A DNA stretch of 64,000 bases from an uncultured Gemmatimonadales bacterium (GTDB taxonomy: Bacteria > Gemmatimonadota > Gemmatimonadetes > Longimicrobiales > RSA9). Position 1 is the stretch's first letter, and the number at the start of each line of letters is the position of its first letter. The position numbers and the translations under genes were made by a program. The notes under the pieces are model-generated. The model did no database searches. It was not told where the DNA came from and saw only the letters and a list, made by a program, of their open reading frames with translations. Below are positions 37,584 through 55,582 of the stretch, one piece after another. Where the stretch lies: contig CAVUKA010000001.1 in assembly GCA_963741945.1 (NCBI GenBank), positions 32,001-96,000 of the forward strand, in the 5' to 3' direction.

Positions 37584-38241
37584 CGACCGGCGGCGCCTCC
37601 GGGAGTGCGCTCACGACCATGTCGGCAAGGCGGGCGAGGGCCGCGCTCATGGCGTGCGCCACATCGGCCGCCGAGGAAGAGGCGGTGTCCACTTCGATGT
37701 GTGCATCGCGCGCGAGGAGGCTGCGCTGGGAGGCGTCGTCGACGATGGACCAGCGACCATCCAGGACCACGGTGCCGCCGGGACTGGCGGCGAACCGCTC
37801 CAGGGTGACGACGAGGAGCCGCATGTCCCCCGGCGGATCCGGCTGGCCGGGGAGCGCCACGCTGCCATCGGGGAGGCGGGCGGCCAGGTCGAAGGCGAGC
37901 GTCCGCCGGACCACGACGGCGAGGCCGGCGGGCCAGCGGACGGTGCCATCCACCTCGAGCCTGTTCTCGGCCGTGATCCGCACCAGCGCCGCGCGGTCCA
38001 GCCCGGGGGGCAGGGTGATCCGCCCCACCGCCAGCGGAGCGCTGGTCGCGGCGGGCGCGGCGCTGCGGGGCGAGATGGTGCTGAGGTCGACATAGCGCGT
38101 GGCGGGGCTGGACGCGCACCCGACCATGCCGAACGCGAGGAGAAGCAGGGGAAGACCGCGGGCCGCCGGGTGAGGCCAGCGGGGCGATGAACGTGGGGAA
38201 CGGCGTCGTCGCACGACCGGGGTGTGGAATCGAAGAGTCAC
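37576..38241 (-). CDS. pqiC: PqiC-like ABC auxiliary lipoprotein
   Basis: Lipobox GMVGC; 'ITLPPGLDRAALV', 'RW', 'LDGRWSI'; third gene of pqiAB. Confidence 0.82.
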   Translation of the reverse strand: MTLRFHTPVVRRRRSPRSSPRWPHPAARGLPLLLLAFGMVGCASSPATRYVDLSTISPRSAAPAATSAPLAVGRITLPPGLDRAALVRITAENRLEVDGTVRWPAGLAVVVRRTLAFDLAARLPDGSVALPGQPDPPGDMRLLVVTLERFAASPGGTVVLDGRWSIVDDASQRSLLARDAHIEVDTASSSAADVAHAMSAALARLADMVVSALPEAPPVGG

Positions 38242-39989
38242 GGTCCTGACCTCCCCTGTATCAGCGCTTCGGGGTGACGATCGAGGTAATCGGTGAGGGA
38301 GCGCAGGGAGCGGGCGGCGCGGGTCATCTCGTCGATCAGGTCCTGGAGATTGTGCTGGTCGCGCAGTGAGCCGCCGGAGAGCCCCTGGACCGCGTCGGCC
38401 GTGGAAGCCAGGTCGCTCATGGCCTGTCGGAGGTCGGAGAGCGCCGGCTGGAGCTGGCGGCGGGCGTCGGCGGTGAGCGTATCCGCGTTGGCCATGAGCC
38501 GGTCCAGGTGTTCCAGGGTCTGATTCAGCTCCGGCGATCGGACCAACGTGTCGAGCCCCGCGGTGAGGTTGCGCAGATTGCGCCCGATGGTCCGGATCGG
38601 GAGGGCGGCCACGGCGTCGGCCGCGCGACTGACCGACGACAGCGCGCTCTGGATTCCCCCGCCCGCGATGGCCGGGATCCCTGGCGGCTGCTGCTGCCGG
38701 TCGAGCCTCCGGCCCCGCTCGTCGGTCATCACCAGCGACGCCTGCTCGCCACCGAGCACGAGCCCGGCCTGCGCCAGCTGGGCGCGCATCCCGTGCCGGA
38801 CCAGCTGGTCTACCACGTCATAGAGCGGCCGGGGCGAATCGCCGGGGCCGCGCGGCGCGAGCCCGAACCGTTCCGGATACAGGTCGAGGATCACGGGCGT
38901 GCTGACCACCCCGCGATCCGGCCGCACGCGGAGCTGCACATCCGCCACTTCGCCCACGCGGATCCCGCGCAGTGTCACCGCCGCGCCCGGCTCCAGCCCG
39001 CCGACGGAGCCGGGGAAGTCGGCCGCGAAGCGGACCGGGCGTCCGGCCAGAGGCGAGCGCGCGTCCGTGGCGCTGGCGTAGAGCCGGTACGCGGAATCCC
39101 GCGTGCCCGCAGCGGACCGGGCGGCCCCCGGCTCCGCAGTCGACGCGCCCGCCGCGCCGGGGGACGGCGACCCGGCGGTGTCGGTGAACGTGTCGAACGC
39201 GACACAGCCGTTGAGGAGCCGGGGGATCGGCGGGAAGTGGACGTCCAGTCCGCCCCCGCCGGTGGACACGTCCAGGCCGCTGCAGCGCCAGAAGCGCGAC
39301 TGCGGCTGGACCAGCGTATCGAACGGCGGCCGGACCAGCACATGGAAGCGGACCTCGCCTGCGGACGGCCCCAGGGAGAGACCGAGCACGCGGCCCGCTT
39401 CAAGGCCGTGATAGATGACCTGCGCTCCACGGCCGATCCCGTGGGCGCGCGCGTCCACCAGCGTGACGGTGCGGCCCGGCTCGACATGGGCGTCGGGGGG
39501 CGGTGAAGTCAGACCCGTGAAGTGGTGGGTGGGCTCCCCCGCGCCGGGCTCCATGACCAGGTACGGTCCGGAGAGGAGGCTGGACAGGTCGCCGCTCAGA
39601 AGGCTGGGGCTCTGGATCCAGAAGCGCGTACCCGTGCGCAGCGCTTCCTGCATGCCATCATCCATTGCGAGGTGCATCACCACGCCGTTCAGCGAGTCCC
39701 CCAGCTCCACGGAAGAGACCTGGCCTACCTGCAGCCCGCGGTAGCGGACCGCCGTCGCCCCTTTCCCCGAGATCCCGTGCGCCGTCGGGAAGGTCACGGT
39801 CACGTTCGGGCCGCCCCCGAACACCGCCTTGAACCCCAGGTACCCCGCGACGAGCAGCGCGGCCAGCGGCACCGCCCAGATCCATCCTCGCCAGGACGAC
39901 TGCTGGATGCGCGCCCACGGCGGTCCCGTCTCGTTCTCGGCAGCCTCGCGGTCGGGGGCGTCGCGGTCGGGGGCGTCGCGGTCGGTCAT
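38238..39989 (-). CDS. pqiB: PqiB-like multi-MCE-domain protein
   Basis: WIWAVPL, VRYRGLQVGQV, GTRFWI, LLSGPYL, GLEPGAAVTLRGIRVGEV, C-terminal LRSLTDYLDRHPEALIQG. Confidence 0.9.
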   Translation of the reverse strand: MTDRDAPDRDAPDREAAENETGPPWARIQQSSWRGWIWAVPLAALLVAGYLGFKAVFGGGPNVTVTFPTAHGISGKGATAVRYRGLQVGQVSSVELGDSLNGVVMHLAMDDGMQEALRTGTRFWIQSPSLLSGDLSSLLSGPYLVMEPGAGEPTHHFTGLTSPPPDAHVEPGRTVTLVDARAHGIGRGAQVIYHGLEAGRVLGLSLGPSAGEVRFHVLVRPPFDTLVQPQSRFWRCSGLDVSTGGGGLDVHFPPIPRLLNGCVAFDTFTDTAGSPSPGAAGASTAEPGAARSAAGTRDSAYRLYASATDARSPLAGRPVRFAADFPGSVGGLEPGAAVTLRGIRVGEVADVQLRVRPDRGVVSTPVILDLYPERFGLAPRGPGDSPRPLYDVVDQLVRHGMRAQLAQAGLVLGGEQASLVMTDERGRRLDRQQQPPGIPAIAGGGIQSALSSVSRAADAVAALPIRTIGRNLRNLTAGLDTLVRSPELNQTLEHLDRLMANADTLTADARRQLQPALSDLRQAMSDLASTADAVQGLSGGSLRDQHNLQDLIDEMTRAARSLRSLTDYLDRHPEALIQGRSGP

Positions 39990-41245
39990 GTCGTGCTGCG
40001 GAGAGCCAGCCGTGTCCGGGCGTGTGTGGTGGTGGCGGCGCCGAGCCTTCCTTCCGCGGCATCCCAGAGCAGGCGCGTGTCGAACAGCCGGGCGGCCATC
40101 ATGGTGAACACCACGACCAGCGTGAACGGCACCGCGGCGATGTCGATGTGCACCAGGGCGGCGCCGGGGAAGGAGAGCAGCGGGATCGAGAACGCCTCGA
40201 TGAGCGGGTCGGTGGTGGACCAGCGACCGATGCCGTGGATCGTGCGGTGGATGTGCGTCTGGCGGCGCAGGTTCTCGGGGTGTGGGCTTCGCACGCGGAA
40301 GAGCAGCCAGGTCAGCCCCACCAGCTTCAGGAACGGCACGAGGATGCTGGCGATGATGATGATCACGGCCAGATACCAGAACCCGGCCTGGAACAGCTCT
40401 CGAACCCCGATGATGATCGTCCGATGCTTAACCCCGGTGGGCTGCATGGTGTAGCTCATCGGGAAATAGTACGAGGGGAAATAGAAGATGTAGCCGGCGG
40501 CCACGAGGGCGGCCGTGCGCGTGAGGGCGTTCAACTTCCGGATCCGCAGGCGCCGGCCGCACCGCGGACAGGGTTTCCCTTCCGCGGAGGCGGGGAGCAC
40601 GAGCATGCAGGCATCGCAGCCGAGCGCGTTTCCGTGCTCGGGCGCCTCGCGGTCCGGCTGAATGGCCTCCCAGACAGTGTGGTTAGTCACCACGCGGTTC
40701 AATACCAGGGAGAGCACGCCGGCGCCGGCGAGGCACCAACCGCCCGGCTCCACGTGGGCGGTGAGCTGCTCGGCCGTCCGCATGTAGATGACGAAGCCGG
40801 CCACGATCATGACCTCGGGCATGGCCCAGAGCCGGATGTTGTCGGCGTAGCGGTAGAGCCGCCCGAGCCAGCCGGGCCTCCAGCGCGTGCGTACGGCCGT
40901 GAGCACGAAGGTCAGCAGCGTGGCGCGTGCCACCGGGAGGAACATGACGAAGGCCGCGAGGATGAGGGCCAGCACGGGCCAGCCGTCGCCCCAGACGCCC
41001 ATGATCCCGGAGACGATCCAGGCCTTGTGCGTCCGTCCCAGTGCGGACGCAGACATGACGGGAAAGAGGTTGGCGAGGAGGAGGAGCACGAGCAGGGCCG
41101 CGGACCAGGCCAGACTCAGGGACAGGGTGAGGGACCGGTTGCGATCCAGGATCTGATCGCAGCGGAGGCACCTGGCCTCGGCTCCGGCCTCCACGACCGG
41201 GATACGCTGTATGGCTCCGCAACCCGAACACGCGACCGTCGACAC
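39986..41245 (-). CDS. pqiA: paraquat-inducible protein A (fused two-domain)
   Basis: Two CxxC...CxRC clusters, WAMPEV, ASILVPFLKL, IGRWS. Confidence 0.9.
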   Translation of the reverse strand: MSTVACSGCGAIQRIPVVEAGAEARCLRCDQILDRNRSLTLSLSLAWSAALLVLLLLANLFPVMSASALGRTHKAWIVSGIMGVWGDGWPVLALILAAFVMFLPVARATLLTFVLTAVRTRWRPGWLGRLYRYADNIRLWAMPEVMIVAGFVIYMRTAEQLTAHVEPGGWCLAGAGVLSLVLNRVVTNHTVWEAIQPDREAPEHGNALGCDACMLVLPASAEGKPCPRCGRRLRIRKLNALTRTAALVAAGYIFYFPSYYFPMSYTMQPTGVKHRTIIIGVRELFQAGFWYLAVIIIIASILVPFLKLVGLTWLLFRVRSPHPENLRRQTHIHRTIHGIGRWSTTDPLIEAFSIPLLSFPGAALVHIDIAAVPFTLVVVFTMMAARLFDTRLLWDAAEGRLGAATTTHARTRLALRSTT

Positions 41246-41339: not shown

Positions 41340-42347
41340 TCAGGCGGCCGGTTCGTCCTCCGGATGCACGAGGAGCACGGGAAGGCTCGCGGCCCGGATG
41401 ACCTTGTCACTGACGCTGCCCAGGATCAAGCGACGCACGCCGCCCCGGCCGCGCGTGGCCATGGCCACCAGGTCCGCTCCCGCGCTGGCGGCAGCGTCGA
41501 GGATGCCCTCGGCCACGGGTCCCACCCATACGAGCGGCTCCGCCACGGCGACGCCCTGCTCCCGGAGCCGCGCGGAAACGGACTCGAGGTATTCCCCGGC
41601 GGTGCGTCGTGCAGCGTTCACCTGCACCTCCGCCTCTTCCGCCATCTCCGGCATGTACGGCGACGCCACAGGCAGGGTAGGCGCGGTGACGCGGAAGGGA
41701 AGGATCTCGGCCTCCATGACCCGGGCGAGAGCGACGGCTGGAGGCAGGATGGCCTCCGACAGCGGGGAGCCATCGAGTGGCACGAGAAAGCGCCCGATCT
41801 TGGTCGAGCCGGCGGCCGCGACGCTCTGCGCTGCGCCGCCCCCTGCCCCGGCACCCGCCGCCTCCCCGGGGCGGACCAGCAGGATCGGCGTGCTCGACGT
41901 GCGGACCAGGCGATCCGCAACGCTGCCGAGCCACGCACGTTCGATGGGTCCTCTTCCGTGCGTGGACATGACCACGATACCCGGATCCGCTTCCCCGATT
42001 CGACGCGTGAGCTGGGCTTCGGCTGCGCCTTCCAGGACCACCGTGTCGACCTTGTCGATCCCGGCATCGCGAAGCCGCTGCTCGACGCGGTCGAGGTACG
42101 CGGCCCTGTCGCGGAGCAGCGATTCGCGGAGCGCGGCGGTCGAGCCGGTCGTGTCGGCGGGGATCTCCATGCCAATGTCCCAGGCGACGGGTGGCGTGGC
42201 TATGCCTCCGGCGGCCAGCGGAGCGGCGTCGACCACGGTGACGAGCTCCAGCGCGCCGTCGCAGGACCGCGCAATGGCCGTGGCCAGCGGGAGCGCGGCT
42301 TCCGCGAACCCGGATCCATCCAGTGGCACCAGAACGCGCTCGAACAT
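41340..42347 (-). CDS. universal stress protein (two USP domains)
   Basis: VLVPLDGS twice; MSTHGRG..LGSVADRLVR and MATRGRG..LGSVSDKVIR; RBS GGAGG. Confidence 0.93.
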   Translation of the reverse strand: MFERVLVPLDGSGFAEAALPLATAIARSCDGALELVTVVDAAPLAAGGIATPPVAWDIGMEIPADTTGSTAALRESLLRDRAAYLDRVEQRLRDAGIDKVDTVVLEGAAEAQLTRRIGEADPGIVVMSTHGRGPIERAWLGSVADRLVRTSSTPILLVRPGEAAGAGAGGGAAQSVAAAGSTKIGRFLVPLDGSPLSEAILPPAVALARVMEAEILPFRVTAPTLPVASPYMPEMAEEAEVQVNAARRTAGEYLESVSARLREQGVAVAEPLVWVGPVAEGILDAAASAGADLVAMATRGRGGVRRLILGSVSDKVIRAASLPVLLVHPEDEPAA

Positions 42348-42395
42348 GCATCCTCCCTTTGTTGCGCCGGAGACCCGCCTCGGAGACGGACGGGC

Positions 42396-42410
42396 GCAAG
42401 CCCCGTTCCC
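42396..42410 (-). promoter_or_regulatory. possible sigma54 (-24/-12) promoter upstream of the USP gene
   Basis: GGGAACGGGGCTTGC fits GG-N10-GC. Confidence 0.35.
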
Positions 42411-42412
42411 GC

Positions 42413-43201
42413 TCAGGCCGTGCCGTTCTCCCGGTCCGTCGGCGGTCCCGGAGGTCGCGGAGCTCCCGGGTCCGCACAGGCGACCCGGCCGATCTCGGGG
42501 CCCCACACGAGGGTTCGTACCTGGCCGGCGGCCTCGCTCCACGCGCCGTGCCAGCGGGCGCCGCCGGGGACCTGGACGATGAAGTCGTCGGCCCCGATCT
42601 CTTCGACCACCACGGCGCGGGTATCGAGCCGAAGCCCCGTTCGCAGCGCCTTCAGGGCGGCTTCCTTCGCCGCCCACGTGAGGTTGGCGAAAAGCGGCCG
42701 CTCGCCCGGCGCCGCCGCGCGCACGCGGGCCGCTTCCGCGGGCGTGAAATAGTCGTCGATGAAGCGCTCGCTTCGCGGCTCGATGGTCTCGAGGTCCACG
42801 CCCAGCTCGCCGCCCCCGAGCCGGGCAGCGGCCAACCCGTTTCCGCCGCTGTGGCTGATGGACACCGCCATGGCAATGAACTCGTCGGCAGCGACGATAC
42901 GGGGTTCCGGAGCGCCGTCGTCCGCCGGGAGCACCTCCACCATGTCGGGCCCGACCTCCCGCCCCGCCGCGGACAGCGCCAGGGCCACGGCGCGCTTCGC
43001 CGCCCAGCGCCCGATCCTCCAGTCGGCTCGCCGTCCGGGCACGCGGTACGCCATGAGCCTGGCCAGCTCCGCATCGGTCAGCCAGTCGCTCGCTTCCGGC
43101 ACCTCCGAGGCGGCCACCAGCACTTCGTGCACGCGCGGCGCGGGGTGCCCGCGCCGGCGCTGGTGGTGGGCGGTGCGCGGCCGGGGCGGCAAAGGTGTCA
43201 T
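42413..43201 (-). CDS. 4'-phosphopantetheinyl transferase (Sfp type)
   Basis: GR.AAK, SISHSG, LGVDLE, WAAKEAALKA; ATGA overlap with the PKS stop. Confidence 0.9.
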   Translation of the reverse strand: MTPLPPRPRTAHHQRRRGHPAPRVHEVLVAASEVPEASDWLTDAELARLMAYRVPGRRADWRIGRWAAKRAVALALSAAGREVGPDMVEVLPADDGAPEPRIVAADEFIAMAVSISHSGGNGLAAARLGGGELGVDLETIEPRSERFIDDYFTPAEAARVRAAAPGERPLFANLTWAAKEAALKALRTGLRLDTRAVVVEEIGADDFIVQVPGGARWHGAWSEAAGQVRTLVWGPEIGRVACADPGAPRPPGPPTDRENGTA

Positions 43202-46200
43202 GCCTTCTGTCGGAGCTCCGGGAACGGGCGCCCTTCCATGGTGGTGGGGAGGGCGGCGGTGCGGTAGCCACGCACCGAAGCCAGCACGGTGCCATCCTCC
43301 GCCACCACGTCCACGTCGTAGCCGGCTTCGGCATCGCCGCCGGCGAGCAGCGCCATGGAGCCTCCGGCGTCGCCCCGGGCCGGGTCGATCAGGTCGACGC
43401 GTTCCACGCTGTACGGCAGCCCCATGCGGGCCGCGTCCGCGATCTCGGCCAGGCCGGCGGTCTGGAACGCCAGCTCGACGAGGCGAGGCGCCGTGAGCAG
43501 CGTCCGCTCCGCGGGGACGTGGTTCGGCGGCAGCGCTTCGGCGAGCCGCCCGGCCAGGAGCGCGCCGGAGCGCCACGCCCGGCCCAGGACCCGGTACGCT
43601 GGGCCATGGAAATAGACATCGTAGATGGCGTCCGCGCCGATCCCGGGCCCGCTCCCGGGAAGATCGCGGCGGTGCGGAGCGTCGGGCGCGCTGGCGGTGA
43701 GCCTCACACGCGCCGTGAAATGCGTGGTCACTTCGGGCTCGGGGCGGCCGTGCAGCGTGCGGGCGCCGAGCAGCGCGCACTCCGCCACCACCTCGTCGCC
43801 ATCCTCGCCGTAGCGCACCCGGACGCTCACGGTGCGCGGCTCATCGCGGTAGAACTTGAACGGCGCGAGGAACGTGACGTCCTCCACGGCCGCGACCCGC
43901 AGCGCCGGGAACGGCAGCGCGGCGGCCTCCGCCATGGCTTCCATGCCCATGACGCCGGGGAGCACCGGGGTGCCGTCGATCCGGTGGTCGTCCAGGAACG
44001 GCTGGGCTTTCGGATCGAGCCGGGTTTCGACCAGGAGCCCGTCGTTCAGGCCGAGCTCCACCACCCGCTCGGCGACGACACCACCGGACCCGTCCGCGTC
44101 CGCCCGTACGCCGCCGCCGGGCGCCCGCGCATCGAGCATGGCGCCCAGCGCGCCGGCGATCACGACTTCGCCGCGGGTGCCGGCGGACAGCTCGCGCCGG
44201 ACGACGGGAACCCCCGCCGCGGGCTCGAGCATGTCAATGCCCGCGGCCTTCAGGATGGTCGGGATCGAGCCGCGGGTGGCCATGCCGATGCCTCCCCACG
44301 CGGTCCAGTCGATGGCTATGCCGCGGGAGGCCGACCTCCGACTGCGGAACGATGAGACCGCCTTGCAGAGCAGGTCGTTGGCCGCGCTGTAGTCGGCCTG
44401 GCCCGCGTTGCCGAAGCGGCCGGCGATGGAGCTGAAGACGACGGCGGCGCCCAGCGGGGCGTCGCCGAGCCCCGCCAGCAGGTTGAACCAGCCGTCGGTC
44501 TTCACGTCGAACACGAGGTCGAACTCTTCCGGCGACTTCTCCGGGATCGACCGGCTGACTTCGAGTCCCGCCGCGTGCACCAGAACGTCCAGCCTGCCCC
44601 GGGCGGCCACCACCTCGCGCATCACGGCCGCCACGGCATCGGCGTCGCGCAGGTCGACGGCGCGCCAGTGCGCGGTGCCACCGGCGGCCTCCACGGCGCG
44701 GATGGCGGCGAGTGCCGCGGCCGCCCGCTCGAGGCGGGCCAGCTGCTTCTCCACCAGCGCCGGCGTCGCCCGCTCGCCGCTGTCCTGGAGCCGCGCGAAG
44801 ATCTCCCGCTTCAGCCCGTCCCGATCGGAAGCGAGCCGCGCCAGGTCCGGGTCGGCCGGGTCGGGCTCCGGCGTCAGGTCCAGGAGCCAGAACTCGCCGC
44901 CCGTCGGGGCCAGGTCCGCGAGAATGGCCGACGTGATGCTCCCCGCCGCGCCCGTGACCACCCAGGCGGCGTCGGCGCCCGGCAGATCGTGCCCCGGCTC
45001 CACGGAACGCGTGTCGAGGCCGACCGTCCAGCGCCTGCCTCCGGCGTGGCCGACCTCCACCACGCCCGGGTCCCGCAGGGTCTCCTCGATGAGCAGGTCC
45101 GCCACTTCGGCCGTCCTCCGGCCCGGGGCGAAGTCCACCGCCTTCACGAGCGCGGCCGGCCGCTCGCGGGCGAACGACTTCACGAGCCCGGTGACGGCGC
45201 CACCGAGGACATCGGCGGCCCCTTCGGCGTCGTACCCGTGGCGGCCGCCGAGACGCGTGGCCGAAACCACGAACCCGCCCGCCGCGCCCACGTCGTCATA
45301 GAGCGAGCGGAGCAGTGCGTAGAGCGCTTTCACGCGGAGCTGGAGCGCCTCCCGCCGTTGCCGGGGCTCGAGCAGCGCGGCGTCGTCGAGGATGTCGAGC
45401 GCCGGAAGCCAGTACACCCCCCGGATCGGGCCTTCCGCCCGCCACCCAGCCAGCCGCTTCGCCAGCGCATCCGGGCTCGCCGCGTCCTCGAGCACCAGCG
45501 GCGCGACGCCGCGTTTCTCCAGCCGGCCCACGAGCGCTTTCGCGACCCCGCCGGTGTCGGGCATCACGACCACGCGGGCTCCCTTGCCCAGCGAGACGCC
45601 CGTTTCCCGGAAGAACGCGATGGGCGGACGCAGTCGCGGGACCGGAACGCGGCGCGGAACCGCCTGCGCGGCCGCCATGTCACTCGCCATGTCACCCGCC
45701 ATGTCACCCGCCATGGCGCGCGGGGCCACGTCGAGGCCGGGGGTCGGCGGCGTGTCCGGAGGCGCGGACCCGGGCTGCGGGGCTCCACCGGCCGCGGCGA
45801 TCGATGGTGCTTCGCCGGCGGCGGGCGCGAGGTCCGGTCGCTTCTCGTACACGAACTCGATGGCCCGCTTCAGCGTGGGGTAGTCCCGGAGCGCCAGCTC
45901 CTCGTCCCGCTCGATGCCGTACTCCTCGCGGATCGCCGCGAACATCTCCGCCTGCTTCACGGTGTCGATGCCCAGGTCCGCTTCCAGGTCCAGGTCCAGC
46001 TCCAGCATGTCCGGCGGGTAGCCGGTCTGCTCCGCCACGATCCCAAGGACGCGCGCGCGCACGGGGTCGCCGGGCGCTGCGCCCGGAGCGGGGGCTGCCG
46101 CGGCCGGGGCGGGTGGAGGGGAGGTGGTCGCGCCGGCGGCGGGTGCGAGGTCCGGGCGCTTCTCGTACACGAACTCGATGGCCCGCTTCAGCGTGGGGTA

Positions 46201-49200
46201 GTCCCGCAACGCCAGCTCCTCGTCCCGCTCGATGGCGTACTCCTCGCGGATCGCCGCGAACATCTCCGCCTGCTTCACGGTGTCGATGCCCAGGTCCGCT
46301 TCCAGGTCCAGGTCCAGCTCCAGCATGTCCGGCGGGTAGCCGGTCTGCTCCGCCACGATCCCCAGCACGCGCTCCCGGATCGGATCCGCGACCGCCACGG
46401 CCGCGGTGCCCGGGACAGCAGTCGTGTCCGGGGCCAGGCCCGCGCCGGGCTGCGGGCGCGCACCCGGGGCCGCGGCCGGCGCGCTCGGCACGGACGCCGT
46501 CGCCGGCAGGGGCATTGCCCCGGGGGCGGCCGGTGTCCCGGCCGGGGCGGGGGCGCCGTTGCGCAGCCGGAGCACGCGCTTCACCACTTCCAGCTCGCCC
46601 GGCCGCCCGCCAGCGATGTCCGCCAGCCACCGATCCCAGGCCGCGCGGTCGGCGATGCGGTGGTGGAATCCCACGCTGCCGGGCGCCCGGCGCGCGCCGT
46701 CGGGCGGCGGGGTCCAACGCAGGAGGCTCATGGCGATCTGCGAGCCGAAACCGGCGCCCAGCCGCAGCGCGTAGGTGACCGGCCGAGCGCCGCCGCGGGA
46801 CAGGTTGAGCTCGCCGAGCTCGGGATCGACGTCGCGGAAATTGGCCACCGGGGGGATCACGCCCGTCTCGAGCATGCGCACGGCCAGAGCGTCCTCGATG
46901 CCCACAGCCATCGGGTGGCCCGTGTGACCCTTGGTATTGGCGACGATGATGCGGTCCACCGCGTCGCCGAAGACGCTCCGCAGCGCCACGACTTCCGCCG
47001 ACGCGCTCCCGCCGCGCGCAGGCGTGTACGTCTCGTGGGAGACGAACACGGTGTCGCCGGCGATCTGGCGGCGGTCGATCCCCCATTCTCGCTCGGCATC
47101 GGAAACCAGGCGCTCCATCACGGCGGCGATGTGCTGCACGTCCAGGCGGCTGCCATGGAACGCGCTGTTCGCCACCGCGGTGCCGAGGATCTCACAGATC
47201 GGCGACAGCCCCCGCTCCGCGGCGGCGTCCAGCGCCTCCACCACGAGCGCCGCGCCACCCATCCCGATGATGAGACCATGACGGCGCCGATCAAACGGGA
47301 GCGCAGCGTCCTCCAGGCGCTCGTCGGTGGCCGCGGCTCCGGAGGCCAGGAACCCGCTGCCGAACCACGGAAGGAGGGCGTCGGTGGTGATGTCGTCCGC
47401 GGACAGGACAATGACGCGACGGCAGCGCCCGGCGGCGATCCAGTCCCGGGCGAGCGCCGTGGCCTGGGTGCCGCTGGCGCACGCTGCGTTGGTGCCGATG
47501 TTGGGGCCGCGCGCAACGATGTACTCGGCGAACTGGGCGTGGCCCATGCTGAGCACCTGGAACAGGAAGCGGCGGTCGAAGCGGAAGGGGTTGGCTGCCA
47601 GCTCGGTCTCCAGGGCGACGATCCGGGCGTCCACCTCCTCGATGGCAGACGCTTCCCCTCCCGCCGGCAGCTTCGCTCGCAGGGATCGGAGCTCCTCCAG
47701 CCGCTCGCGCCGGGCACGGTCCTCGTGGTAGCCCTCGATCACGCGCGCGAAGGAATCGTAGCCGGGGAAAGCGGACGCGAAGATGACACCGGTGTCGTCC
47801 CGCATCGATTCCGGGAGCGCCCAGCCGTCCGGGAGCTTCGATCCGGTGGTCGTGGTCTTGTGCCGCAGCACGAGCGGAATTCCGGCATCGCGCAGCGCGT
47901 CGAGCCCCGCGGCGATGGCGAGGCGGGTGACCCGGTCCAATGCGCCGAGCCGATCCTCCGGGAAGCCGTACTCCTCCACCAGGTCCACTGCCCCGCCGCG
48001 GCCAGCGAGCTTGATCACGTCCGCAGGGTCGTCGATGGTCTCGAAGCGCGCGTCCCCGTTCGACCCTTTCACCAGCCGGGTGATCCGGTGCCCGGCCATG
48101 GCTTCACGCAGCCCCTGCGGCACTGCGCCGATCAGCGCCTCTCCCGCGAGGATCCGCTCCAGGTTCCGCTCATCGAACACCCACTCCCCACCGGGGAGCC
48201 CGAGCGCCGCGCCCGTGATCCCCACCCGCACCGGGCGCGCGGCCCGGCCACCCGCCCAGGTCTCGAAGCTGCGCTCGAGGAAGTCGGAGAACATCCGGCC
48301 CAGCGCCAGGTGCCGGTCCTCGTCCCGTGTGGCGCCGGCGATGCGGGAACGCGTGGCTGACAGCGACGGGTCGGGCGCGGGGGTCGGCCAGGGCGTGTCG
48401 GGCGTGTCGGCCGTATCGCGCATGTGGGGCGCGGACAGCGCGGCGGCGGCGGGAGTCGCGGGCTGTGCCAGGCTGTGGGCGCGCGGCGATGGCGCGAGCG
48501 TCCGGGCCGCCCCGTGACCGGCGGCGTAGAGGCCGCAGAGCGCGCGGTTGAACGAGACGACGTCACCCGTCCTGGGGTGATTCGTGAAGAGGGTGGTCAC
48601 GTCCTCGCGGCCGCCGAGAACGTCTTCGGCGAAGCCGTAGAGGACGCGCTTCGGGCCCATCTCGATGAACACGCGGGCGCCGGCGTCGTACAGCGTCTCC
48701 AGCCCCCTGACGAACTGGACGGGGGAGCCGACCTGCCGGGCGAGGATGTCGCGCATGCGCTCCACCACGTCGCCCTCCGCCGGGTAGAACTGGCCATCCA
48801 CGTTGGCGACGATGGGGCGGTCGGGCGGCCGGAGCGACAGCGAGCTCAGCACCTGAACGAGCGGCTCCGAGGCCTGGGCCACGATCTCCGTGTGGAACGC
48901 GTGGCTGACGGGGAGCGGCTGCGCGCGCATGCCGGCTCCCCGCAGTGCTTCCATGGCCGCGGTCACAGCCGCGGTCGCGCCGCCGATGACGCACTCCTTC
49001 GTGCTGTTCAGGTTGGCAATGACCACATAGCCGTCCACGCCTCCGATCACGTCACGCACGCGCTCCACGTCGCCGAACACGGCAGCCATGAGCCCGTTGT
49101 CCTCCATGGCGAGGTGCGTCATGGCGTCCCCGCGCGCGGAGACGGCCCTGAGCGCGTCGGCGAACGACATGCCCGCGGCCGCGACGAGGGCGCCATACTC

Positions 49201-51270
49201 GCCGAGGCTGTGCCCCATGACCATGTCGGGCTCGATGCCGTACGCGACCATCAGCCGGGCCAGCGACGTGTCCACGGCCAGCATCGCGGGCTGGGTGATG
49301 GCCGTCTGCTTCAGCGCCTCCTCTGCGGCCGCCAGTGCAGTACCGTCCCCGGCGTCCACGAAGATCCGGGACGTGAGCGTGCTCCCGATGAGCGGCGCCA
49401 TGACCCCGTCCGCCTCGTCGAACGTGTCCGCCACCACCGGCTCCGTGTCGCGCAGCCCCCGCAGCATGTTGGCGTACTGGGAGCCCTGCCCCGTGAACAG
49501 GAACGCGACTCTCCCGGGCGCGCCCCGGCCCAGGAACACGCCCTTGTTCCGGAGCGCGCGCCAGCGGCCGGCATCGCCCGTGTCGAGCGCGGCGAGGGTC
49601 CTGGTGGCCAGGTCCGCCAGCTCGGCGGCGTCGCCGTAGTCGATGGCGAGGCGGACCGGCGCGTCGAGGTCGGCGCGGGCGGGCGGTGCGGGCGGCGGCG
49701 CGTCGCCGGCCTCCGCGGCCGCCTTCACCGCTTCCAGGCGACGCGCGATGTCCGCTTCCGACGCCCCGCCGATCACGAGCGCGCCCCGAAGGGGAGCCTT
49801 GAGCGGCATGGCCCCGGGTACGTGCGCCCGCGGCGCGGGTGAGGGCACGTACTCCTCCAGCACCACGTGGAAGTTCGTCCCGCCGAAGCCGAACGCGCTC
49901 ACGCCCGCCCTGCGCGGGCCGCCATCGGAGCGATGCGGCCAGTCGCGCATCTCGGCCACCACGGCCATCGTGGCGCGGCCGAAATCGATGCCGGGGTTCG
50001 GGCGCGCGAAGTTGATGCTGGCGGGGACAGCGCCATGGTGGAGCGAGAGGGCGGCCTTGAGCATCCCAACGGCGCCCGCAGCCCCCTTCAGGTGCCCGAT
50101 GTTCGACTTCACCGAGCCGAGCATGAGGGCGCCCGGCGCCAGCGCGGCCCCGGCGAACACCTCATCCATGCTCGCGACTTCCACGACGTCGCCCACGCGC
50201 GTCGACGTGCCGTGCCCCTCGATCAGGTCGCCCGCCGCGGGCACCAGGCCGGCGTTGGCCCACGCGCGCTCCACCGCCAGCTGCTGGCCGATGGGGTTCG
50301 GCGCCGTGATCCCCTTCCCTCGCCCGTCGCTGGAGCCACCCACCCCGCGGATGACGGCGTAGACGCGGTCGCCATCTCGCTCGGCGTCGGCCAGCCGCTT
50401 CAGCAGGAAGATCACCGCACCCTCGCCCATCACGAAGCCATCGGCCCCCTCCGCGTACGGCCGGGAGCCGGTGGCGCTGAGCGCGCCGATCTTGCAGAAC
50501 TTCACGAATGCGGACGGGCTCATGTTCGCGTCCGCGCCGCCCGCCAGGACCGCGTCGAAATCGCCATTCTCGAGACCGTCGATGGCGGCATAGAGGGCGG
50601 CCATGGCGGAGGCGCACGCGGCGTCCGTGACGAAATTGGGGCCGCGGAAGTCGTACAGCGCGGCAATGCGGCCGGCGGTGATGTTGGACAGCTCCCCCGG
50701 CATCGTGTCCTCGGTGATATCCGGGATCCGCCGGTTCACACCGGCCCGGAGCTCTTCGAGGACCGCGGCGCGCACGTCCTCCGGCAGGGCGCGGTAGGCG
50801 GGCGCCGCCCGGAGCTCCTCGGCCACTTCGGGGAAGAGGATGCGGGCGCCCGTCAGGAGGTGGTAGTCGCCACCCATCGCGTTGCCGAGAATCACGGCCG
50901 TGCGGTCGCCATCGAGCGGGCGATGGGGGTGTCCATAGTCGAGCAGCGCCTGCCTCGCCGCGGCGATGGCGTACTTCTGCGTGGGATCCATGGACGCCGC
51001 CACTTTCGGCGGGATCGGCATGCGCCACCCGAGCGGGTTCCACTCGTAGTCGGCGACCCACCCGCCGATCTTCGAGTACGTCCGGTCCGGCGCGCGCGGG
51101 TCCGGGTCGAAGTAGAGGTCCGCGTTCCAGCGCTCGCGGGGAACGTCGCGGATGCTGTTGCGTCCTTCCTTCAGGTTCTTCCAGAACGCGGCCACGTCGG
51201 GCGCGTCCGGGAGGACCGCCCCGACTCCCACGATGGCCACCGACCTGCTGCGCGCGCTGCTGTCCATCAT
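43198..51270 (-). CDS. iterative type I PKS/FAS, PfaA-like: KS-AT-KS-ACP-ACP-KR-DH
   Basis: KS1 DAACAS/HGTST/KSNIGH; AT GQGSQ/GHSLG/HAFH; KS2 NAACAS/SHETYT/TKGHTGH; ACP LGIDTVKQAE x2; KR TGAAGSI/QADYSAAN; DH DHRIDGTPVLPG. Confidence 0.93.
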   Translation of the reverse strand: MMDSSARSRSVAIVGVGAVLPDAPDVAAFWKNLKEGRNSIRDVPRERWNADLYFDPDPRAPDRTYSKIGGWVADYEWNPLGWRMPIPPKVAASMDPTQKYAIAAARQALLDYGHPHRPLDGDRTAVILGNAMGGDYHLLTGARILFPEVAEELRAAPAYRALPEDVRAAVLEELRAGVNRRIPDITEDTMPGELSNITAGRIAALYDFRGPNFVTDAACASAMAALYAAIDGLENGDFDAVLAGGADANMSPSAFVKFCKIGALSATGSRPYAEGADGFVMGEGAVIFLLKRLADAERDGDRVYAVIRGVGGSSDGRGKGITAPNPIGQQLAVERAWANAGLVPAAGDLIEGHGTSTRVGDVVEVASMDEVFAGAALAPGALMLGSVKSNIGHLKGAAGAVGMLKAALSLHHGAVPASINFARPNPGIDFGRATMAVVAEMRDWPHRSDGGPRRAGVSAFGFGGTNFHVVLEEYVPSPAPRAHVPGAMPLKAPLRGALVIGGASEADIARRLEAVKAAAEAGDAPPPAPPARADLDAPVRLAIDYGDAAELADLATRTLAALDTGDAGRWRALRNKGVFLGRGAPGRVAFLFTGQGSQYANMLRGLRDTEPVVADTFDEADGVMAPLIGSTLTSRIFVDAGDGTALAAAEEALKQTAITQPAMLAVDTSLARLMVAYGIEPDMVMGHSLGEYGALVAAAGMSFADALRAVSARGDAMTHLAMEDNGLMAAVFGDVERVRDVIGGVDGYVVIANLNSTKECVIGGATAAVTAAMEALRGAGMRAQPLPVSHAFHTEIVAQASEPLVQVLSSLSLRPPDRPIVANVDGQFYPAEGDVVERMRDILARQVGSPVQFVRGLETLYDAGARVFIEMGPKRVLYGFAEDVLGGREDVTTLFTNHPRTGDVVSFNRALCGLYAAGHGAARTLAPSPRAHSLAQPATPAAAALSAPHMRDTADTPDTPWPTPAPDPSLSATRSRIAGATRDEDRHLALGRMFSDFLERSFETWAGGRAARPVRVGITGAALGLPGGEWVFDERNLERILAGEALIGAVPQGLREAMAGHRITRLVKGSNGDARFETIDDPADVIKLAGRGGAVDLVEEYGFPEDRLGALDRVTRLAIAAGLDALRDAGIPLVLRHKTTTTGSKLPDGWALPESMRDDTGVIFASAFPGYDSFARVIEGYHEDRARRERLEELRSLRAKLPAGGEASAIEEVDARIVALETELAANPFRFDRRFLFQVLSMGHAQFAEYIVARGPNIGTNAACASGTQATALARDWIAAGRCRRVIVLSADDITTDALLPWFGSGFLASGAAATDERLEDAALPFDRRRHGLIIGMGGAALVVEALDAAAERGLSPICEILGTAVANSAFHGSRLDVQHIAAVMERLVSDAEREWGIDRRQIAGDTVFVSHETYTPARGGSASAEVVALRSVFGDAVDRIIVANTKGHTGHPMAVGIEDALAVRMLETGVIPPVANFRDVDPELGELNLSRGGARPVTYALRLGAGFGSQIAMSLLRWTPPPDGARRAPGSVGFHHRIADRAAWDRWLADIAGGRPGELEVVKRVLRLRNGAPAPAGTPAAPGAMPLPATASVPSAPAAAPGARPQPGAGLAPDTTAVPGTAAVAVADPIRERVLGIVAEQTGYPPDMLELDLDLEADLGIDTVKQAEMFAAIREEYAIERDEELALRDYPTLKRAIEFVYEKRPDLAPAAGATTSPPPAPAAAAPAPGAAPGDPVRARVLGIVAEQTGYPPDMLELDLDLEADLGIDTVKQAEMFAAIREEYGIERDEELALRDYPTLKRAIEFVYEKRPDLAPAAGEAPSIAAAGGAPQPGSAPPDTPPTPGLDVAPRAMAGDMAGDMASDMAAAQAVPRRVPVPRLRPPIAFFRETGVSLGKGARVVVMPDTGGVAKALVGRLEKRGVAPLVLEDAASPDALAKRLAGWRAEGPIRGVYWLPALDILDDAALLEPRQRREALQLRVKALYALLRSLYDDVGAAGGFVVSATRLGGRHGYDAEGAADVLGGAVTGLVKSFARERPAALVKAVDFAPGRRTAEVADLLIEETLRDPGVVEVGHAGGRRWTVGLDTRSVEPGHDLPGADAAWVVTGAAGSITSAILADLAPTGGEFWLLDLTPEPDPADPDLARLASDRDGLKREIFARLQDSGERATPALVEKQLARLERAAAALAAIRAVEAAGGTAHWRAVDLRDADAVAAVMREVVAARGRLDVLVHAAGLEVSRSIPEKSPEEFDLVFDVKTDGWFNLLAGLGDAPLGAAVVFSSIAGRFGNAGQADYSAANDLLCKAVSSFRSRRSASRGIAIDWTAWGGIGMATRGSIPTILKAAGIDMLEPAAGVPVVRRELSAGTRGEVVIAGALGAMLDARAPGGGVRADADGSGGVVAERVVELGLNDGLLVETRLDPKAQPFLDDHRIDGTPVLPGVMGMEAMAEAAALPFPALRVAAVEDVTFLAPFKFYRDEPRTVSVRVRYGEDGDEVVAECALLGARTLHGRPEPEVTTHFTARVRLTASAPDAPHRRDLPGSGPGIGADAIYDVYFHGPAYRVLGRAWRSGALLAGRLAEALPPNHVPAERTLLTAPRLVELAFQTAGLAEIADAARMGLPYSVERVDLIDPARGDAGGSMALLAGGDAEAGYDVDVVAEDGTVLASVRGYRTAALPTTMEGRPFPELRQKA
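45813..46372. repeat. near-identical direct repeat of the ACP-coding unit (45813-46054 and 46131-46372; period 318 bp)
   Basis: Direct comparison shows only a handful of substitutions over ~242 bp. Confidence 0.92.
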
Positions 51271-53233: not shown

Positions 53234-53842
53234 TCAGTGGCGCGGTCCGGCGGGCGGGGACGCCTCCCGCTTGAACGCCGACGCCTCCTGCGCAGCGAAA
53301 TCGCGGTTCCGCTCCGCCTCCTCCTTCAGCACCTCGCGGTCGTGGGCCAGGTTGCGCCGCGCCCGCTCCAGTCGGAGCTCGCTCGCGTCCCGCATGTCGC
53401 GCGCTGCGCTGCCGGCGAAGATGGCGGCGGCGAGGGCGAGGGCAGCGCCTACGATCAGGCCGCCGGCCCAGAACGCCCCGCCCAGCAGGACGCCGATCCC
53501 GAGGATGGCGCCCGTGGTGAGGGCGAGGCCCGCCAGCAGGCCGAGTGAGAGCGCGACGCCCAGCTTGGTCAGGTCCTTCGCCAGAGTGCGCCCCGCGTCC
53601 TGCAGCTCGGCCGAGAAGGTGCCGGCCACCTCCCGCAGCTCGAGCTTCGCCAGCTCCAGCTCGTCGTGCACCAGCTGTGTCGCGTCGCGGTTCAGCCGGC
53701 CGAGGAGCTGCTTGAGATCGGCGCCGTCCCCGGCCGGGGCGCGGCCGGCACGGAGATACCCCGGGACGGGCTCGCGCAGCCGCTCGACGGACGGGCCGCC
53801 GGGTCTGGGCGTGCGCTCGGGCGTGTATTCGCCGGCGCTCAT
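53234..53842 (-). CDS. YqjE-like / actinobacterial holin-X family membrane protein
   Basis: 'LVHDELELAKLEL' followed by two TM helices; last gene of a three-gene unit. Confidence 0.75.
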   Translation of the reverse strand: MSAGEYTPERTPRPGGPSVERLREPVPGYLRAGRAPAGDGADLKQLLGRLNRDATQLVHDELELAKLELREVAGTFSAELQDAGRTLAKDLTKLGVALSLGLLAGLALTTGAILGIGVLLGGAFWAGGLIVGAALALAAAIFAGSAARDMRDASELRLERARRNLAHDREVLKEEAERNRDFAAQEASAFKREASPPAGPRH

Positions 53843-54870
53843 GCTCCCCTCCCCGGCTCGGTCATGGACCGATCCGCGGTCTGGCGATGGTCCTCACCGT
53901 CCGCCACGGGCCAGCTCTCGTCCACCGCCCGCCGCGCCGCCTCCCCGGCCTTCTCCCGGGCGACGTCGTGCGCGCGCCCGCTCATTCGCCGAGCCTGCTC
54001 CTCCGCCCGGTCCAGCACCCGGTCCCGCGTGCGACCGAAGAGCTCGTGCTCGCGCTGCGTCTCCGGCGCCATCAAGCCCGCGGCGAAGCCCAGTGCCGCC
54101 GCCACTGCGCCCGCGGCCAGCGGGTTCTCGCGCACCGCGTACTCGACCCTGTGCTCCGCCCGCATGGTCTGGTGCTCGGCCTCGTGCACCCACTCTCCCG
54201 CCCGCTCGCGGCCGTGTCGCACGCGGTCGGCGGCTTCGTCCGTCAGCTCCGACGCCTTCTCCCGGGCCGTGTCCGCGGCGTCGCTCGCCTTCTCCTGCAC
54301 CCGCGATGCCGCCTGCCGCACACGCTCCTTCGCCCCGGCCTCGGTGTCGTCGCCGGACTCGACGTCCCGGCTCTGCCGCAGCCGCGCCGCCTCGAGCTCC
54401 GAACCGGTGATGTAGCCGGCCGCGTACCGCTCCGCGTAAGGCTCCGCCGCGTAGCCGACGGCGTACCGTTCCACGTACGGGTCCGCCGGGCCGTAGCCGC
54501 CCCGGACCCGGGCCCGGCCCTGCAGGCGACGCGACCGCTCGTACTCGTCGTCGTCATGCCCGCCGCCGTTCGCCACCAGCCAGGCGAGCCCCACGCCCAC
54601 CATCGTGGCCGGGATCGGGTTCTCCTTGATGGTCTGCCACAGGCCCCGGCCGCCCTCCGACACCTCGTGCTCGACGTCCCTCATGGTGCTCCTCGCCTTC
54701 CGCTTCACCGTTCGCTTCCACTCGTCCACTTCACCCCGGGCCCGCGCCTTCAGCTCGCGCTGCAGCCGGTCCGGGTTCACGCGGGCGCCGATCTCCTCTA
54801 CCGTGTCCGCCATGCGGGCGCGCGTATCCTCGATCCGCTCACGGACCTCCCGTTCCGATTCCTCACGCAT
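53839..54870 (-). CDS. DUF3618-like protein with ElaB/YqjD-like repeats
   Basis: 'IEDTRARMADTVEEIGARVNP'; two 'ENP' + hydrophobic helix motifs; 'PETQREHELFG'. Confidence 0.75.
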   Translation of the reverse strand: MREESEREVRERIEDTRARMADTVEEIGARVNPDRLQRELKARARGEVDEWKRTVKRKARSTMRDVEHEVSEGGRGLWQTIKENPIPATMVGVGLAWLVANGGGHDDDEYERSRRLQGRARVRGGYGPADPYVERYAVGYAAEPYAERYAAGYITGSELEAARLRQSRDVESGDDTEAGAKERVRQAASRVQEKASDAADTAREKASELTDEAADRVRHGRERAGEWVHEAEHQTMRAEHRVEYAVRENPLAAGAVAAALGFAAGLMAPETQREHELFGRTRDRVLDRAEEQARRMSGRAHDVAREKAGEAARRAVDESWPVADGEDHRQTADRSMTEPGRGA

Positions 54871-55582
54871 AGCCGCCCTCCTCCTCGATCCGCTCCGCCG
54901 CCTCGCGCGGTGGGGCTTCCCGGCGATAGGGCGCCGACGGGCGGGACTCGCTGCGATACCCCCGCCCCGGCTCAGGGCCGTACACACCGCCATATCCCGC
55001 GGACGACTCGTAGCCCCGGCTCCCGGCGTAGCCACGGCCGGAATCGTACCCCCGGTCACGTCCGCCGCCCCGGGCCTCGGAGCCCGAGCTCTTCAGGAAA
55101 CGCGCGCCAGCCAGCCCCAGCGCGAACGCGCCACCAAGGAAGAGCGGCGCGTTGTCACGGGCGAAACGGCGCGCCTCGCGCGTCAGCCCATCCACGTCGC
55201 GCCGTTCCAGGTACCGCGACGCACCTTCCACGCGTTCCGCCACCGTCTCCAGGAAACGACTGTACTGCCGATCGTCTTCCGGCAGGTCCTCGCTCCCGCG
55301 CCGCAGCGCGTCCGCCACGGTCCGCATCCCGCCGGCGACCCGCTCCTTCTGCTCATCCGCACGTGAACGCGCCTCGCTCGCCGCTTCGTGCCCGAGATCC
55401 CGGGCCTTCTCCTTGCCCTCCTCCACCAGCTCGCGGCCACGGTCCCTGGCCTCCGCGGCGACGGCCTCGGCGCTCGACTCCGCCCGGTACACAGTGCTCC
55501 GCACCTTCTCCTTCGCCTTCCCGGTCGCGTTCTCCGGCTCCCGCCGCCGATGTCGTTCCGCCGACTCGTGTGATTCCGCCAT
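54863..55582 (-). CDS. hydrophilic helical stress-type protein (ElaB/YqjD-like)
   Basis: Charged helical N-terminus; 'FARDNAPLFLGGAFALGLAGARFLKSS'; RBS GGGAGA. Confidence 0.72.
   Translation of the reverse strand: MAESHESAERHRRREPENATGKAKEKVRSTVYRAESSAEAVAAEARDRGRELVEEGKEKARDLGHEAASEARSRADEQKERVAGGMRTVADALRRGSEDLPEDDRQYSRFLETVAERVEGASRYLERRDVDGLTREARRFARDNAPLFLGGAFALGLAGARFLKSSGSEARGGGRDRGYDSGRGYAGSRGYESSAGYGGVYGPEPGRGYRSESRPSAPYRREAPPREAAERIEEEGGYA

Follow-up and report, generated by a model that had tools for sequence, protein, structure and literature searches.

A stretch of 64,000 nucleotides from an uncultured Gemmatimonadales bacterium (GenBank assembly GCA_963741945.1, contig CAVUKA010000001.1, positions 32,001 to 96,000 of the forward strand; G+C content, ~71%), hereafter the window, carries an operon of three genes that encode an acyl-CoA dehydrogenase (ACAD), a megasynthase with two ketosynthase (KS) domains, and a 4'-phosphopantetheinyl transferase (PPTase). 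The architecture of the megasynthase was already catalogued in 2011, and the protein is a new member of the known Type R family of lipid synthases. On balance, we lean toward the view that the Type R operon specifies an iterative system resembling a fatty acid synthase (FAS) of type I, in which two KSs operate together with an ACAD-family reductase acting in trans and the product is a long acyl chain.

All three genes lie on the reverse strand. The first (P0122; 51267..52955) encodes a 562-amino-acid protein with the Pfam domains Acyl-CoA_dh_N, Acyl-CoA_dh_M, and Acyl-CoA_dh_1, predicted to be an ACAD of the very-long-chain acyl-CoA dehydrogenase (VLCAD) type. The second is an open reading frame (ORF) that runs uninterrupted over 2,690 codons (43198..51270) and encodes a megasynthase of 2,690 amino acids with the domain order KS1, acyltransferase (AT), KS2, two acyl carrier protein (ACP) domains, ketoreductase (KR), and dehydratase (DH). 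The third (42413..43201) encodes a PPTase of the Sfp/HetI type with 262 amino acids (PF01648, 1e-18; TIGR00556). In the junction sequences, the stop codon of the ACAD gene and the start codon of the synthase gene share a 4-nucleotide ATGA overlap, as do the stop codon of the synthase gene and the ATG of the PPTase gene, and the three genes form a translationally coupled operon. A preliminary description of this DNA had spoken of three genes; the flanking ACAD and PPTase genes do exist, but neither was named there and a contribution from the dehydrogenase was not considered. A tandem universal stress protein (Usp) ORF at positions 41340-43334 was also a candidate for the third gene of the operon. 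Usp is kept in none of 80 related genomic loci; the true downstream gene is the PPTase, read in another frame.

In the available text of the paper that introduced them, "Type R" secondary lipid synthases consist of one pfaA homologue with the order KS-MAT-CLF-ACP(3-6)-KR, where MAT is a malonyl acyltransferase and CLF a chain-length factor, with a PPTase gene coming next (Shulse & Allen 2011, PLoS One 6:e20146, PMC3098273). The hosts given there are Koribacter versatilis, Solibacter usitatus, Elusimicrobium minutum, and Roseiflexus spp., with a product described as uncharacterised, and in Koribacter an acetyl-CoA carboxylase (ACC) gene lies between the synthase and PPTase genes (PMC3098273). 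The window synthase has this domain order, with two ACPs, and a downstream PPTase gene, and thus shares with Type R a pfaA homologue bearing a KS, a MAT, a second KS-like domain, tandem ACPs, and a KR. The novelty that the preliminary description had implied for the architecture was not borne out. There are also differences from the system as published, in that the available text labels the second KS-like domain a CLF and is silent on both a DH and an upstream ACAD (PMC3098273). In a Korobacteraceae metagenome-assembled genome (MAG; locus L029) that served as a proxy for the named strains, the KS2 domain is 61% identical to that of the window, and a single-chain ACC gene follows the synthase, in keeping with the published arrangement in Koribacter. 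No later characterization or product of Type R was found in the literature searched, which consisted largely of listings and the beginnings of abstracts; to that extent, the premise of the preliminary description that this architecture has no characterized product stands.

Like the published Type R clusters, relatives of the window operon are scattered across phyla. A word-indexed search with KS2 returned 3,666 matches among 8,000 candidates scored; the best 120 were 63-100% identical to the query, and the full-length proteins among them share its Pfam content. An exhaustive HMMER search with KS2 recovered 677 clusters at 50% identity (E <= 1e-30). According to their record labels, the 80 loci belong to Gemmatimonadota, Actinomycetota, Acidobacteriota, Chloroflexota, Calditrichota, Krumholzibacteriia, and Saprospiraceae, along with Myxococcales and other "deltaproteobacterial" MAGs and single loci labelled Burkholderiaceae and "uncultured bacterium." Within the phylum of the window the distribution is patchy, with the family present in 2 of 201 sampled genomes when the window genome is counted.

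The catalytic domains of the synthase all appear intact. KS1 (49828..51270; residues 1-481) is a PfaA/polyketide synthase (PKS)-type KS with matches to PF00109, PF02801, and PF16197 (Pfam span, residues 9-481) and with the motifs DAACAS at residue 216, HGTST at 353, and NIGH at 390; all 28 aligned orthologues retain its C219, H353, K388, and H393 unchanged. The AT (48616..49503; residues 590-885; PF00698; fabD, TIGR00128) is of the malonyl type and has GHSLG at residue 686 and HAFH at 790, motifs that are present, in the form GHS[LQIVM]G plus HAFH, in all 101 full-length homologues. KS2 (46612..48228; residues ~1015-1553) is FabF-like. It is followed by the two carrier domains (46153..46371 and 45853..46053, the latter at residues 1740-1806; both PF00550). 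The catalytic subdomain of the KR (44293..44730; residues 2181-2326; PF08659) contains Ser2281, Tyr2294, and Asn2298, and the PKS-type DH (43246..44061; residues 2404-2675; PF21089 and PF14765) contains His2429 within HRIDGTPVLP; none of the 101 full-length homologues departs from the KR Ser, Tyr, and Asn or from the DH residues His2429 and Pro2438. Every motif named in the preliminary description was found where it had been placed, and its KS2 cysteine codon (47479-47481) is exact.

The best NCBIfam model for the whole synthase is PfaA (TIGR02813), which it matches with 855.7 bits, short of the cut-off of 1010.1. A second comparison is with the polyunsaturated fatty acid (PUFA) synthases PfaA/PfaC/PfaD of Shewanella and Moritella, which have in common with the window synthase a KS1, an AT, tandem ACPs, a KR, and a PKS-type DH. 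Type R resembles them further in having two KSs per iterative system and, among its relatives in Anaerolineae, an enoyl reductase (ER) of the PfaD family. The window system differs in its PfaA score, which falls below the cut-off, and in having no PfaB, no PfaC, and no FabA-type dehydratase/isomerase, which leaves no obvious route to cis double bonds. Its second KS also sets it apart, being FabF-like and part of one chain with the other domains and retaining the Cys that the CLF of PfaC lacks; so does its candidate ER partner, an ACAD. The preliminary description had reported no pfaB, pfaC, or pfaD and no thioesterase (TE) or reductive release domain nearby, and our searches agree, as none of these was found in the part of the window from 27.9 to 64 kb. 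Likewise, no pfaC-sized KS gene was found in the whole genome.

The synthase has a KR and a DH, yet a Pfam search of the protein found no ER domain, and no PfaD-type gene of the NMO family was found near the window locus. We propose that the ACAD probably supplies the missing enoyl reduction. In sequence and predicted structure, the protein has the features by which VLCAD-type enzymes are defined, namely, the ACAD core, the catalytic Glu, and the additional C-terminal helical domain. Its Glu374, in the motif YEGT, is invariant in 21 of 21 orthologues (mean column identity, 70%), and its AlphaFold2 model (pLDDT, 85), which includes the extra helical domain, matches VLCAD, ACAD9, 3owa, and 2z1q over the full length (TMq, 0.75-0.79). 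The window protein thus appears to share both fold and YEGT Glu with human VLCAD (7s7g and 3b96), ACAD9, and the enzymes of Bacillus anthracis (3owa) and Thermus thermophilus (2z1q). In contrast to these enzymes, its translation is coupled to that of a megasynthase, with which it is highly conserved, at 55-77% identity across phyla. Its top NCBIfam model is the enoyl-CoA reductase AcrC (240 bits, below the cut-off), and by analogy with the enoyl-CoA reductases Bcd, AcrC, and CarC it may work in the reductive direction.

The distribution of reductase genes among relatives points the same way. An ACAD orthologue lies directly upstream of the synthase in 53 of the 61 loci that retain at least 1.7 kb upstream of KS1. 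The other eight comprise six from Anaerolineae and two fragmentary ones. Loci L041 and L053 look fragmentary and are left out of our interpretation. In four Anaerolineae loci (L060, L063, L066, and L074), a convergent gene of the PfaD family is found just past the PPTase gene; L063, L066, and L074 have no ACAD and keep at least 2.6 kb downstream, while the upstream end of L060 is cut. With TIGR02814, whose cut-off is 449 bits, the PfaD-family gene of L066 reaches 630 bits. None of the 80 loci has both an ACAD and a PfaD gene, and across this set the two are mutually exclusive. A third arrangement emerged from the 150 most similar cluster representatives, 80 of which have an intact N-terminus: an NMO-family domain comes first in 13 of these 80 proteins and KS1 in the other 67, and none has a fused ACAD. 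The best match of the N-terminal domain in one such protein (P0198) is FabK, below the cut-off. Searched with P0198 and P0257, the 80 loci showed no fused NMO domain, and a metagenome scan, which was aimed at the ACAD neighborhood of the ER-fused forms, found no relatives of P0198. Since the PfaD query from Levilinea, whose genome had revealed the stand-alone gene in a Pfam search, gave no match to the fused NMO domains of the representatives, the stand-alone PfaD and the fused domains are different branches of the NMO superfamily. Flavoprotein classes capable of enoyl reduction therefore accompany the synthase almost everywhere and replace one another, which is our main, if indirect, reason for assigning this role to the ACAD.

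Several observations weigh against the proposed role for the ACAD. At L048, an Anaerolineaceae locus, the 3.8 kb downstream contain neither reductase. In 6 of the 80 loci, all actinobacterial (L014, L016, L017, L026, L028, and L075), an EtfA-like gene is located on the same strand 2-3 kb upstream of the ACAD gene, and a weak EtfA-like match occurs on the opposite strand in L070; family models confirmed the identity of EtfA in one locus, L028. In aerobes, electron transfer flavoprotein (ETF) normally takes electrons from ACADs, and ACADs of natural product pathways usually oxidize carrier-bound acyl groups. The EtfA neighbors fit dehydrogenation by the ACAD as well as they fit reduction, and together with the usual oxidative role of such enzymes they make a desaturase or tailoring function possible. 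Furthermore, clusters of the ACAD type were found in genomes that have a type II FAS (G000 and G201-G204), and those of the PfaD type in genomes that do not. As such, ACAD and PfaD may mark different products rather than one and the same step.

The alternative that survives best builds on these observations. It holds that the synthase has no ER at all and makes a polyene or partly unsaturated specialized lipid, in the manner of the enediyne PKSs (KS-AT-ACP-KR-DH), with the ACAD acting as a tailoring desaturase or as the source of a 2-enoyl starter and passing electrons to ETF. The absence of an ER domain from the synthase, the EtfA genes near the ACAD, the presence of ACAD-type clusters in genomes that already have a type II FAS, and their patchy distribution (2 of 201 genomes sampled from the phylum), as is typical of accessory metabolism, all favor this reading. 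We nevertheless consider it unlikely. Sister branches put PfaD-family or FabK-like reductases in the place of the ACAD, and never alongside it; the frequent linkage to acyl-CoA carboxylase genes suggests bulk lipid flux; and close relatives of the PfaD type seem to be the only FAS of their hosts in Anaerolineae.

Evidence on the last two points comes from the neighborhoods and genomes of the relatives. At 24 of the 80 loci, the synthase is next to acyl-CoA carboxylase genes. In Actinomycetota and Acidobacteriota, such a gene lies directly downstream and encodes a single-chain, eukaryote-like carboxylase of ~1,850 amino acids (L013, L014, L016, L017, L022, L028, L029, L037, L070, and others) with the order biotin carboxylase (BC), biotin carboxyl carrier protein (BCCP), ACC_central, and carboxyltransferase (CT), where ACC_central is the domain of acetyl-CoA carboxylases. 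In Anaerolineae, separate CT, BC, and BCCP genes precede the synthase. Among the five Anaerolineae genomes examined, four of which have a PfaD gene beside the synthase, that of Levilinea saccharolytica (G205, locus L066) yielded FabF-family matches at the default threshold only to the two KS domains of the synthase. A search of the same genome found no match to the FabZ/FabA family, a single weak FabH-like match of 66.9 bits, and no ACAD at E <= 1e-40. In the other four genomes (G206-G209, with loci L074, L063, L060, and L048), FabF-family matches at E <= 1e-20 were likewise confined to the synthase. Judging from these matches, the Type R synthase looks like the only FAS in the five genomes, and with its sole KS domains and its carboxylase and PPTase genes in Anaerolineae it looks like a self-sufficient type I FAS. 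Fatty acids of Anaerolineae are reportedly ordinary. It counts against our interpretation that the completeness of these genomes was not reported. Contig 8 of the window genome bears fabH, fabD, and fabF, and the genome also has fabZ; with a type II FAS of its own, its Type R operon is accessory.

A broader version of our interpretation can be put forward tentatively. In that version, Type R would be a distinct, self-sufficient bacterial type I FAS with a core of two active KSs of different origin (PfaA-type and FabF-type), an interchangeable ER slot, and a cofactor linked to Thr, serving as the primary FAS in Anaerolineae and as an accessory system in Gemmatimonadota, Acidobacteriota, and Actinomycetota. 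The ER slot would be occupied by a protein of the PfaD family, a FabK-like domain, or, as in the window, a VLCAD-type ACAD running in reverse, and the PPTase would be dedicated to the synthase and coevolved with it.

The notion of a Thr-linked cofactor comes from the carrier domains, both of which read DLGIDTVK. The Thr of this motif (Thr1664, codon 46279-46281, and Thr1770, codon 45961-45963) aligns with the Ser that holds phosphopantetheine in AcpP and in the PigH ACPs, and Ser is absent from the carrier-domain sequence; neither domain has the Ser of the D-S-(L/I) motif by which canonical ACPs (PF00550) are recognized. In the window and the 80 loci, Anaerolineae included, all 181 motifs have Thr at the site. 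Among the top 120 homologues, 378 of 386 motif matches have Thr, and the other eight read EAGIDML (six), ERGVDVL (one), and DLGIDMV (one), most of which look like chance matches outside carrier domains. In a more diverse sample, 115 of 119 representatives with the motif have only Thr, and four have Ser, one of them mixing Ser and Thr. A used attachment site would be expected to keep a hydroxy residue, as this position does, and from this pattern we infer that phosphopantetheine is attached to Thr, with the PPTase of the operon serving the Thr carriers. Of the 81 sources formed by the window and the loci, 46 yielded a PPTase orthologue, and a PPTase domain is fused to the C-terminus of the synthase in 25 of the 150 representatives. 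At one locus (L079), a PPTase domain follows the single-chain carboxylase in the same reading frame. It weighs against attachment to Thr that this residue at the cofactor site reportedly blocks modification of Escherichia coli ACP. We found nothing in print on a Thr-linked cofactor, using narrow phrase searches, and it may be described elsewhere; the preliminary description does not mention the Thr, and the main text of the Type R paper contains neither "serine" nor "threonine" and so does not note it (Shulse & Allen 2011, PMC3098273).

The second KS is the other distinguishing element of the system. In sequence and fold it is FabF-like rather than CLF-like. Pfam analysis of residues 1000-1560 alone identified KS2 by PF00109 (1e-12) and PF02801 (4.6e-6), and its top NCBIfam model is fabF (TIGR03150), at 125.8 bits against a cut-off of 493.75. 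We ruled out that KS2 is a duplicate of KS1, as the two score 34 bits against each other, while KS2 scores 95 bits (31% identity) against the genome's own FabF. In phmmer alignments with solved FabF structures, Cys1264 (codon 47479-47481), His1412 (47035-47037), Lys1447 (46930-46932), and His1452 (46915-46917) of KS2 correspond to the catalytic Cys, His, Lys, and His of FabF; the motifs concerned are NAACASG at residue 1261, SHETYT at 1411, and KGHTGH at 1447. An AlphaFold2 model of residues 1000-1560 built with 37 sequences (pLDDT, 87.3; pTM, 0.89) has the whole KAS II fold, and the top Foldseek matches are FabF structures (E ~6e-31; TMt, 0.85-0.88). Thus, KS2 resembles KAS II of Pseudomonas aeruginosa (4b7v) and E. 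coli (1kas) in its predicted fold and its Cys-His-Lys-His set, yet it does not appear to be a FabF orthologue, differing in its identity of ~20-24% over the Foldseek alignments, a hairpin of ~56 residues, the motif HETYTP, and its position inside a megasynthase.

Conservation suggests that KS2 is catalytically active. All 121 proteins in the set made up of the query and its top 120 matches keep the Cys, His, Lys, and His of KS2, as do 37 of 37 sequences across phyla at 51-72% identity, and distant variants keep them too (37-44% identity; 41-44% by BLAST). KS2 is at least as well conserved as KS1, with mean column identities of 65% and 61%, respectively, across comparable ranges of phyla. The proposal in the preliminary description of two apparently active KSs in a self-contained synthase is therefore strengthened by the Pfam domains, the catalytic residues, and the strong conservation of KS2, and the KS2 residues align with the active-site set of FabF, within a modeled KAS II fold. 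One detail needs correction: of the His residues in KGHTGH, the second (1452) is catalytic and conserved, but the first, His1449, is variable among the 121 sequences (A, 78; Y, 19; F, 15; H, 5; S, 2). The charged, coiled-coil-like insertion noted earlier in KS2 corresponds to a predicted helical hairpin (47593..47760; residues 1171-1226), formed by helices 172-201 and 208-227 of the model in the cap region. It falls within the KS2 segment 136-240, which phmmer aligns with FabF residues ~96-140, a stretch that we take to include the acyl-pocket residue Ile108. The hairpin and SHETYTP are family signatures of KS2. In the latter, the Glu and Tyr are invariant, whereas canonical KSs read HGT(S/G)TP; the invariant Glu stands where canonical KSs have Gly, and it might signal a different chemistry, which is a point against ordinary elongation by KS2.

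The preliminary description suggested that KS2 may do a different job, such as head-to-head condensation, release by condensation, or long-chain elongation; in the condensation reading, KS2 would carry out a terminating Claisen reaction in the manner of Pks13 or OleA and release a branched or very long membrane lipid. The full catalytic set of KS2, its HETYTP motif and cap hairpin, and the lack of a TE or reductive release domain are all compatible with such a reaction, as is the linkage to acyl-CoA carboxylases at 24 of 80 loci, given that mycolate condensation uses carboxylated acyl-CoA. The remaining evidence makes it highly improbable. The AT motifs GHSLG and HAFH are of the malonyl type in 101 of 101 homologues, and neither a FAAL/FadD32-like gene nor an N-terminal, second loading ACP nor a TE was found in the synthase or the window. 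Of the synthase, the Pks13 model NF040607 picks up KS1 alone, with a score of 419.7 bits that falls short of its cut-off of 2100, and the linked single-chain carboxylases bear the ACC_central domain of acetyl-CoA carboxylases. Finally, Anaerolineae seem to rely on the Type R synthase alone, and the restriction of FabF-family matches to the synthase in the five genomes, at the thresholds given above, suggests ordinary iterative elongation.

In the iterative system that we favor, KS1 and KS2 would probably form a pseudo-dimer, with the reservation that the score of the model may reflect the likeness of the pair to solved KS dimers and KS-CLF pairs. When KS1 (residues 1-480) and KS2 (residues 1010-1525) were modeled as a complex in three runs, the ipSAE values were 0.86, 0.85, and 0.86, compared with 0.00 for the best control; this mark was attained by 116 of 157 solved complexes and by 2 of 215 mismatched pairs. 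The runs share at least 80% of contacts, and the pLDDT of the partners is at least 84. The predicted interface is the canonical strand of KS dimers (KS1 206-218 against KS2 253-264), and only the first residue of the KS2 hairpin (172, in model numbering) takes part in it. Two points count against the pairing: the modeled heterodimer is indistinguishable from homodimers of KS1 and of KS2, and variants with the order KS-KS'-AT-KS2 suggest that KS2 can do without a KS1 partner. In these variants, an extra KS lies between KS1 and the AT (P0257, P0272, and P0216). P0257 and P0272, which also have an N-terminal NMO-family reductase domain, contain a KS1-derived middle KS' that keeps its Cys and has lost both His residues, as in a CLF, alongside a KS2 that retains Cys, His, Lys, and His; the extra KS of P0216 keeps the full catalytic set. 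The coexistence of a His-less KS' with an intact KS2 indicates that the CLF-like role and KS2 are separate.

The defining mark of a CLF is that the active-site Cys, and usually the His residues too, have been lost, and KS2, with Cys1264, His1412, and His1452 invariant, does not answer to that definition. The idea that KS2 is a noncondensing, CLF-like partner, limited to dimerizing with KS1 and possibly to decarboxylating malonyl-ACP in priming, agrees with its position after KS-AT, with its annotation as a CLF in the available text of Shulse & Allen (PMC3098273), and with the confident dimer model (0.86 against 0.00), but we give it very little credence given a catalytic Cys, Lys, and both His residues that are invariant across phyla, conservation equal to that of KS1, derivation from a FabF-type rather than a PKS-type KS, and the genuinely His-less KS' beside it in some variants.

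Assembled from these parts, the iterative FAS-like system would work as follows. The malonyl-specific AT would load the two tandem carrier domains with Thr at the cofactor site, which the co-encoded PPTase would serve. The PfaA-type KS1 and the FabF-type KS2 would share the elongation cycles, with KS1 responsible for priming and the early rounds and KS2 for later, longer chains, by analogy with the PfaA-KS and the PfaC-KS/CLF. A precedent for two KSs that divide chain lengths is described for PUFA synthases in the available text of PMC12895367. The KR and DH would then produce a trans-2-enoyl thioester, which the ACAD-family flavoprotein would reduce in trans, taking the place that a PfaD-family or FabK-like reductase holds in other branches. 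A long and largely saturated acyl chain would result, possibly off-loaded via the AT, and in the window genome the operon would provide an accessory supply of lipid beside a complete type II FAS. Two general considerations weigh against this scheme, namely, that we found no release enzyme for the synthase and that each of its steps is a prediction. Enediyne PKSs (PKSE; KS-AT-ACP-KR-DH-PPTase) offer a further comparison, as they too are iterative, related to PfaA, and without an ER, and some Type R proteins likewise carry the PPTase in cis. PKSEs differ in having one KS and one ACP and in releasing a polyene by a dedicated thioesterase; the window has no such TE and no enediyne cassette.

Other genes surround the operon in the window. 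Directly downstream of the PPTase gene is a tandem Usp gene (41340-~42300, reverse strand), followed by a lipid-transport-type set that encodes PqiA, PqiB with an MlaD domain, and an ABC_trans_aux lipoprotein (37576-41245, reverse strand). We rejected the PqiA/MlaD genes as part of the cluster; they occur in no conserved neighbor cluster, and no direct search for them was made. A squalene-hopene cyclase gene (27947-30217, reverse strand; PF13243 and PF13249) lies ~13 kb from the operon. Upstream of the ACAD gene (53234-55059, reverse strand) are stress-type genes that encode a membrane protein similar to Holin-X (PF07332) and a DUF3618/DUF883/LEA-like protein, which belong to no conserved neighbor cluster either. 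The region is flanked by two large genes for tricorn-protease-like proteins (34021-37431, reverse strand; 55880-60574, forward strand) with PD40 repeats, Tricorn_C1, PDZ_Tricorn, and Peptidase_S41 domains.

Type R synthases make up a large family that spans major phyla of soil and sediment and has had no known product in the 15 years since it was catalogued. With three genes in ~10.5 kb, the operon is a tractable target for experiments. If our interpretation holds, a VLCAD-type flavoprotein would be the enoyl reductase of a megasynthase, and the CLF label that the second KS carries in the literature would be wrong. The carrier domains would represent a natural, family-wide exception to the textbook rule that the carrier cofactor is held by Ser. 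More generally, an entire bacterial class, the Anaerolineae, would make its membrane fatty acids by a Type R enzyme and not by a type II FAS.

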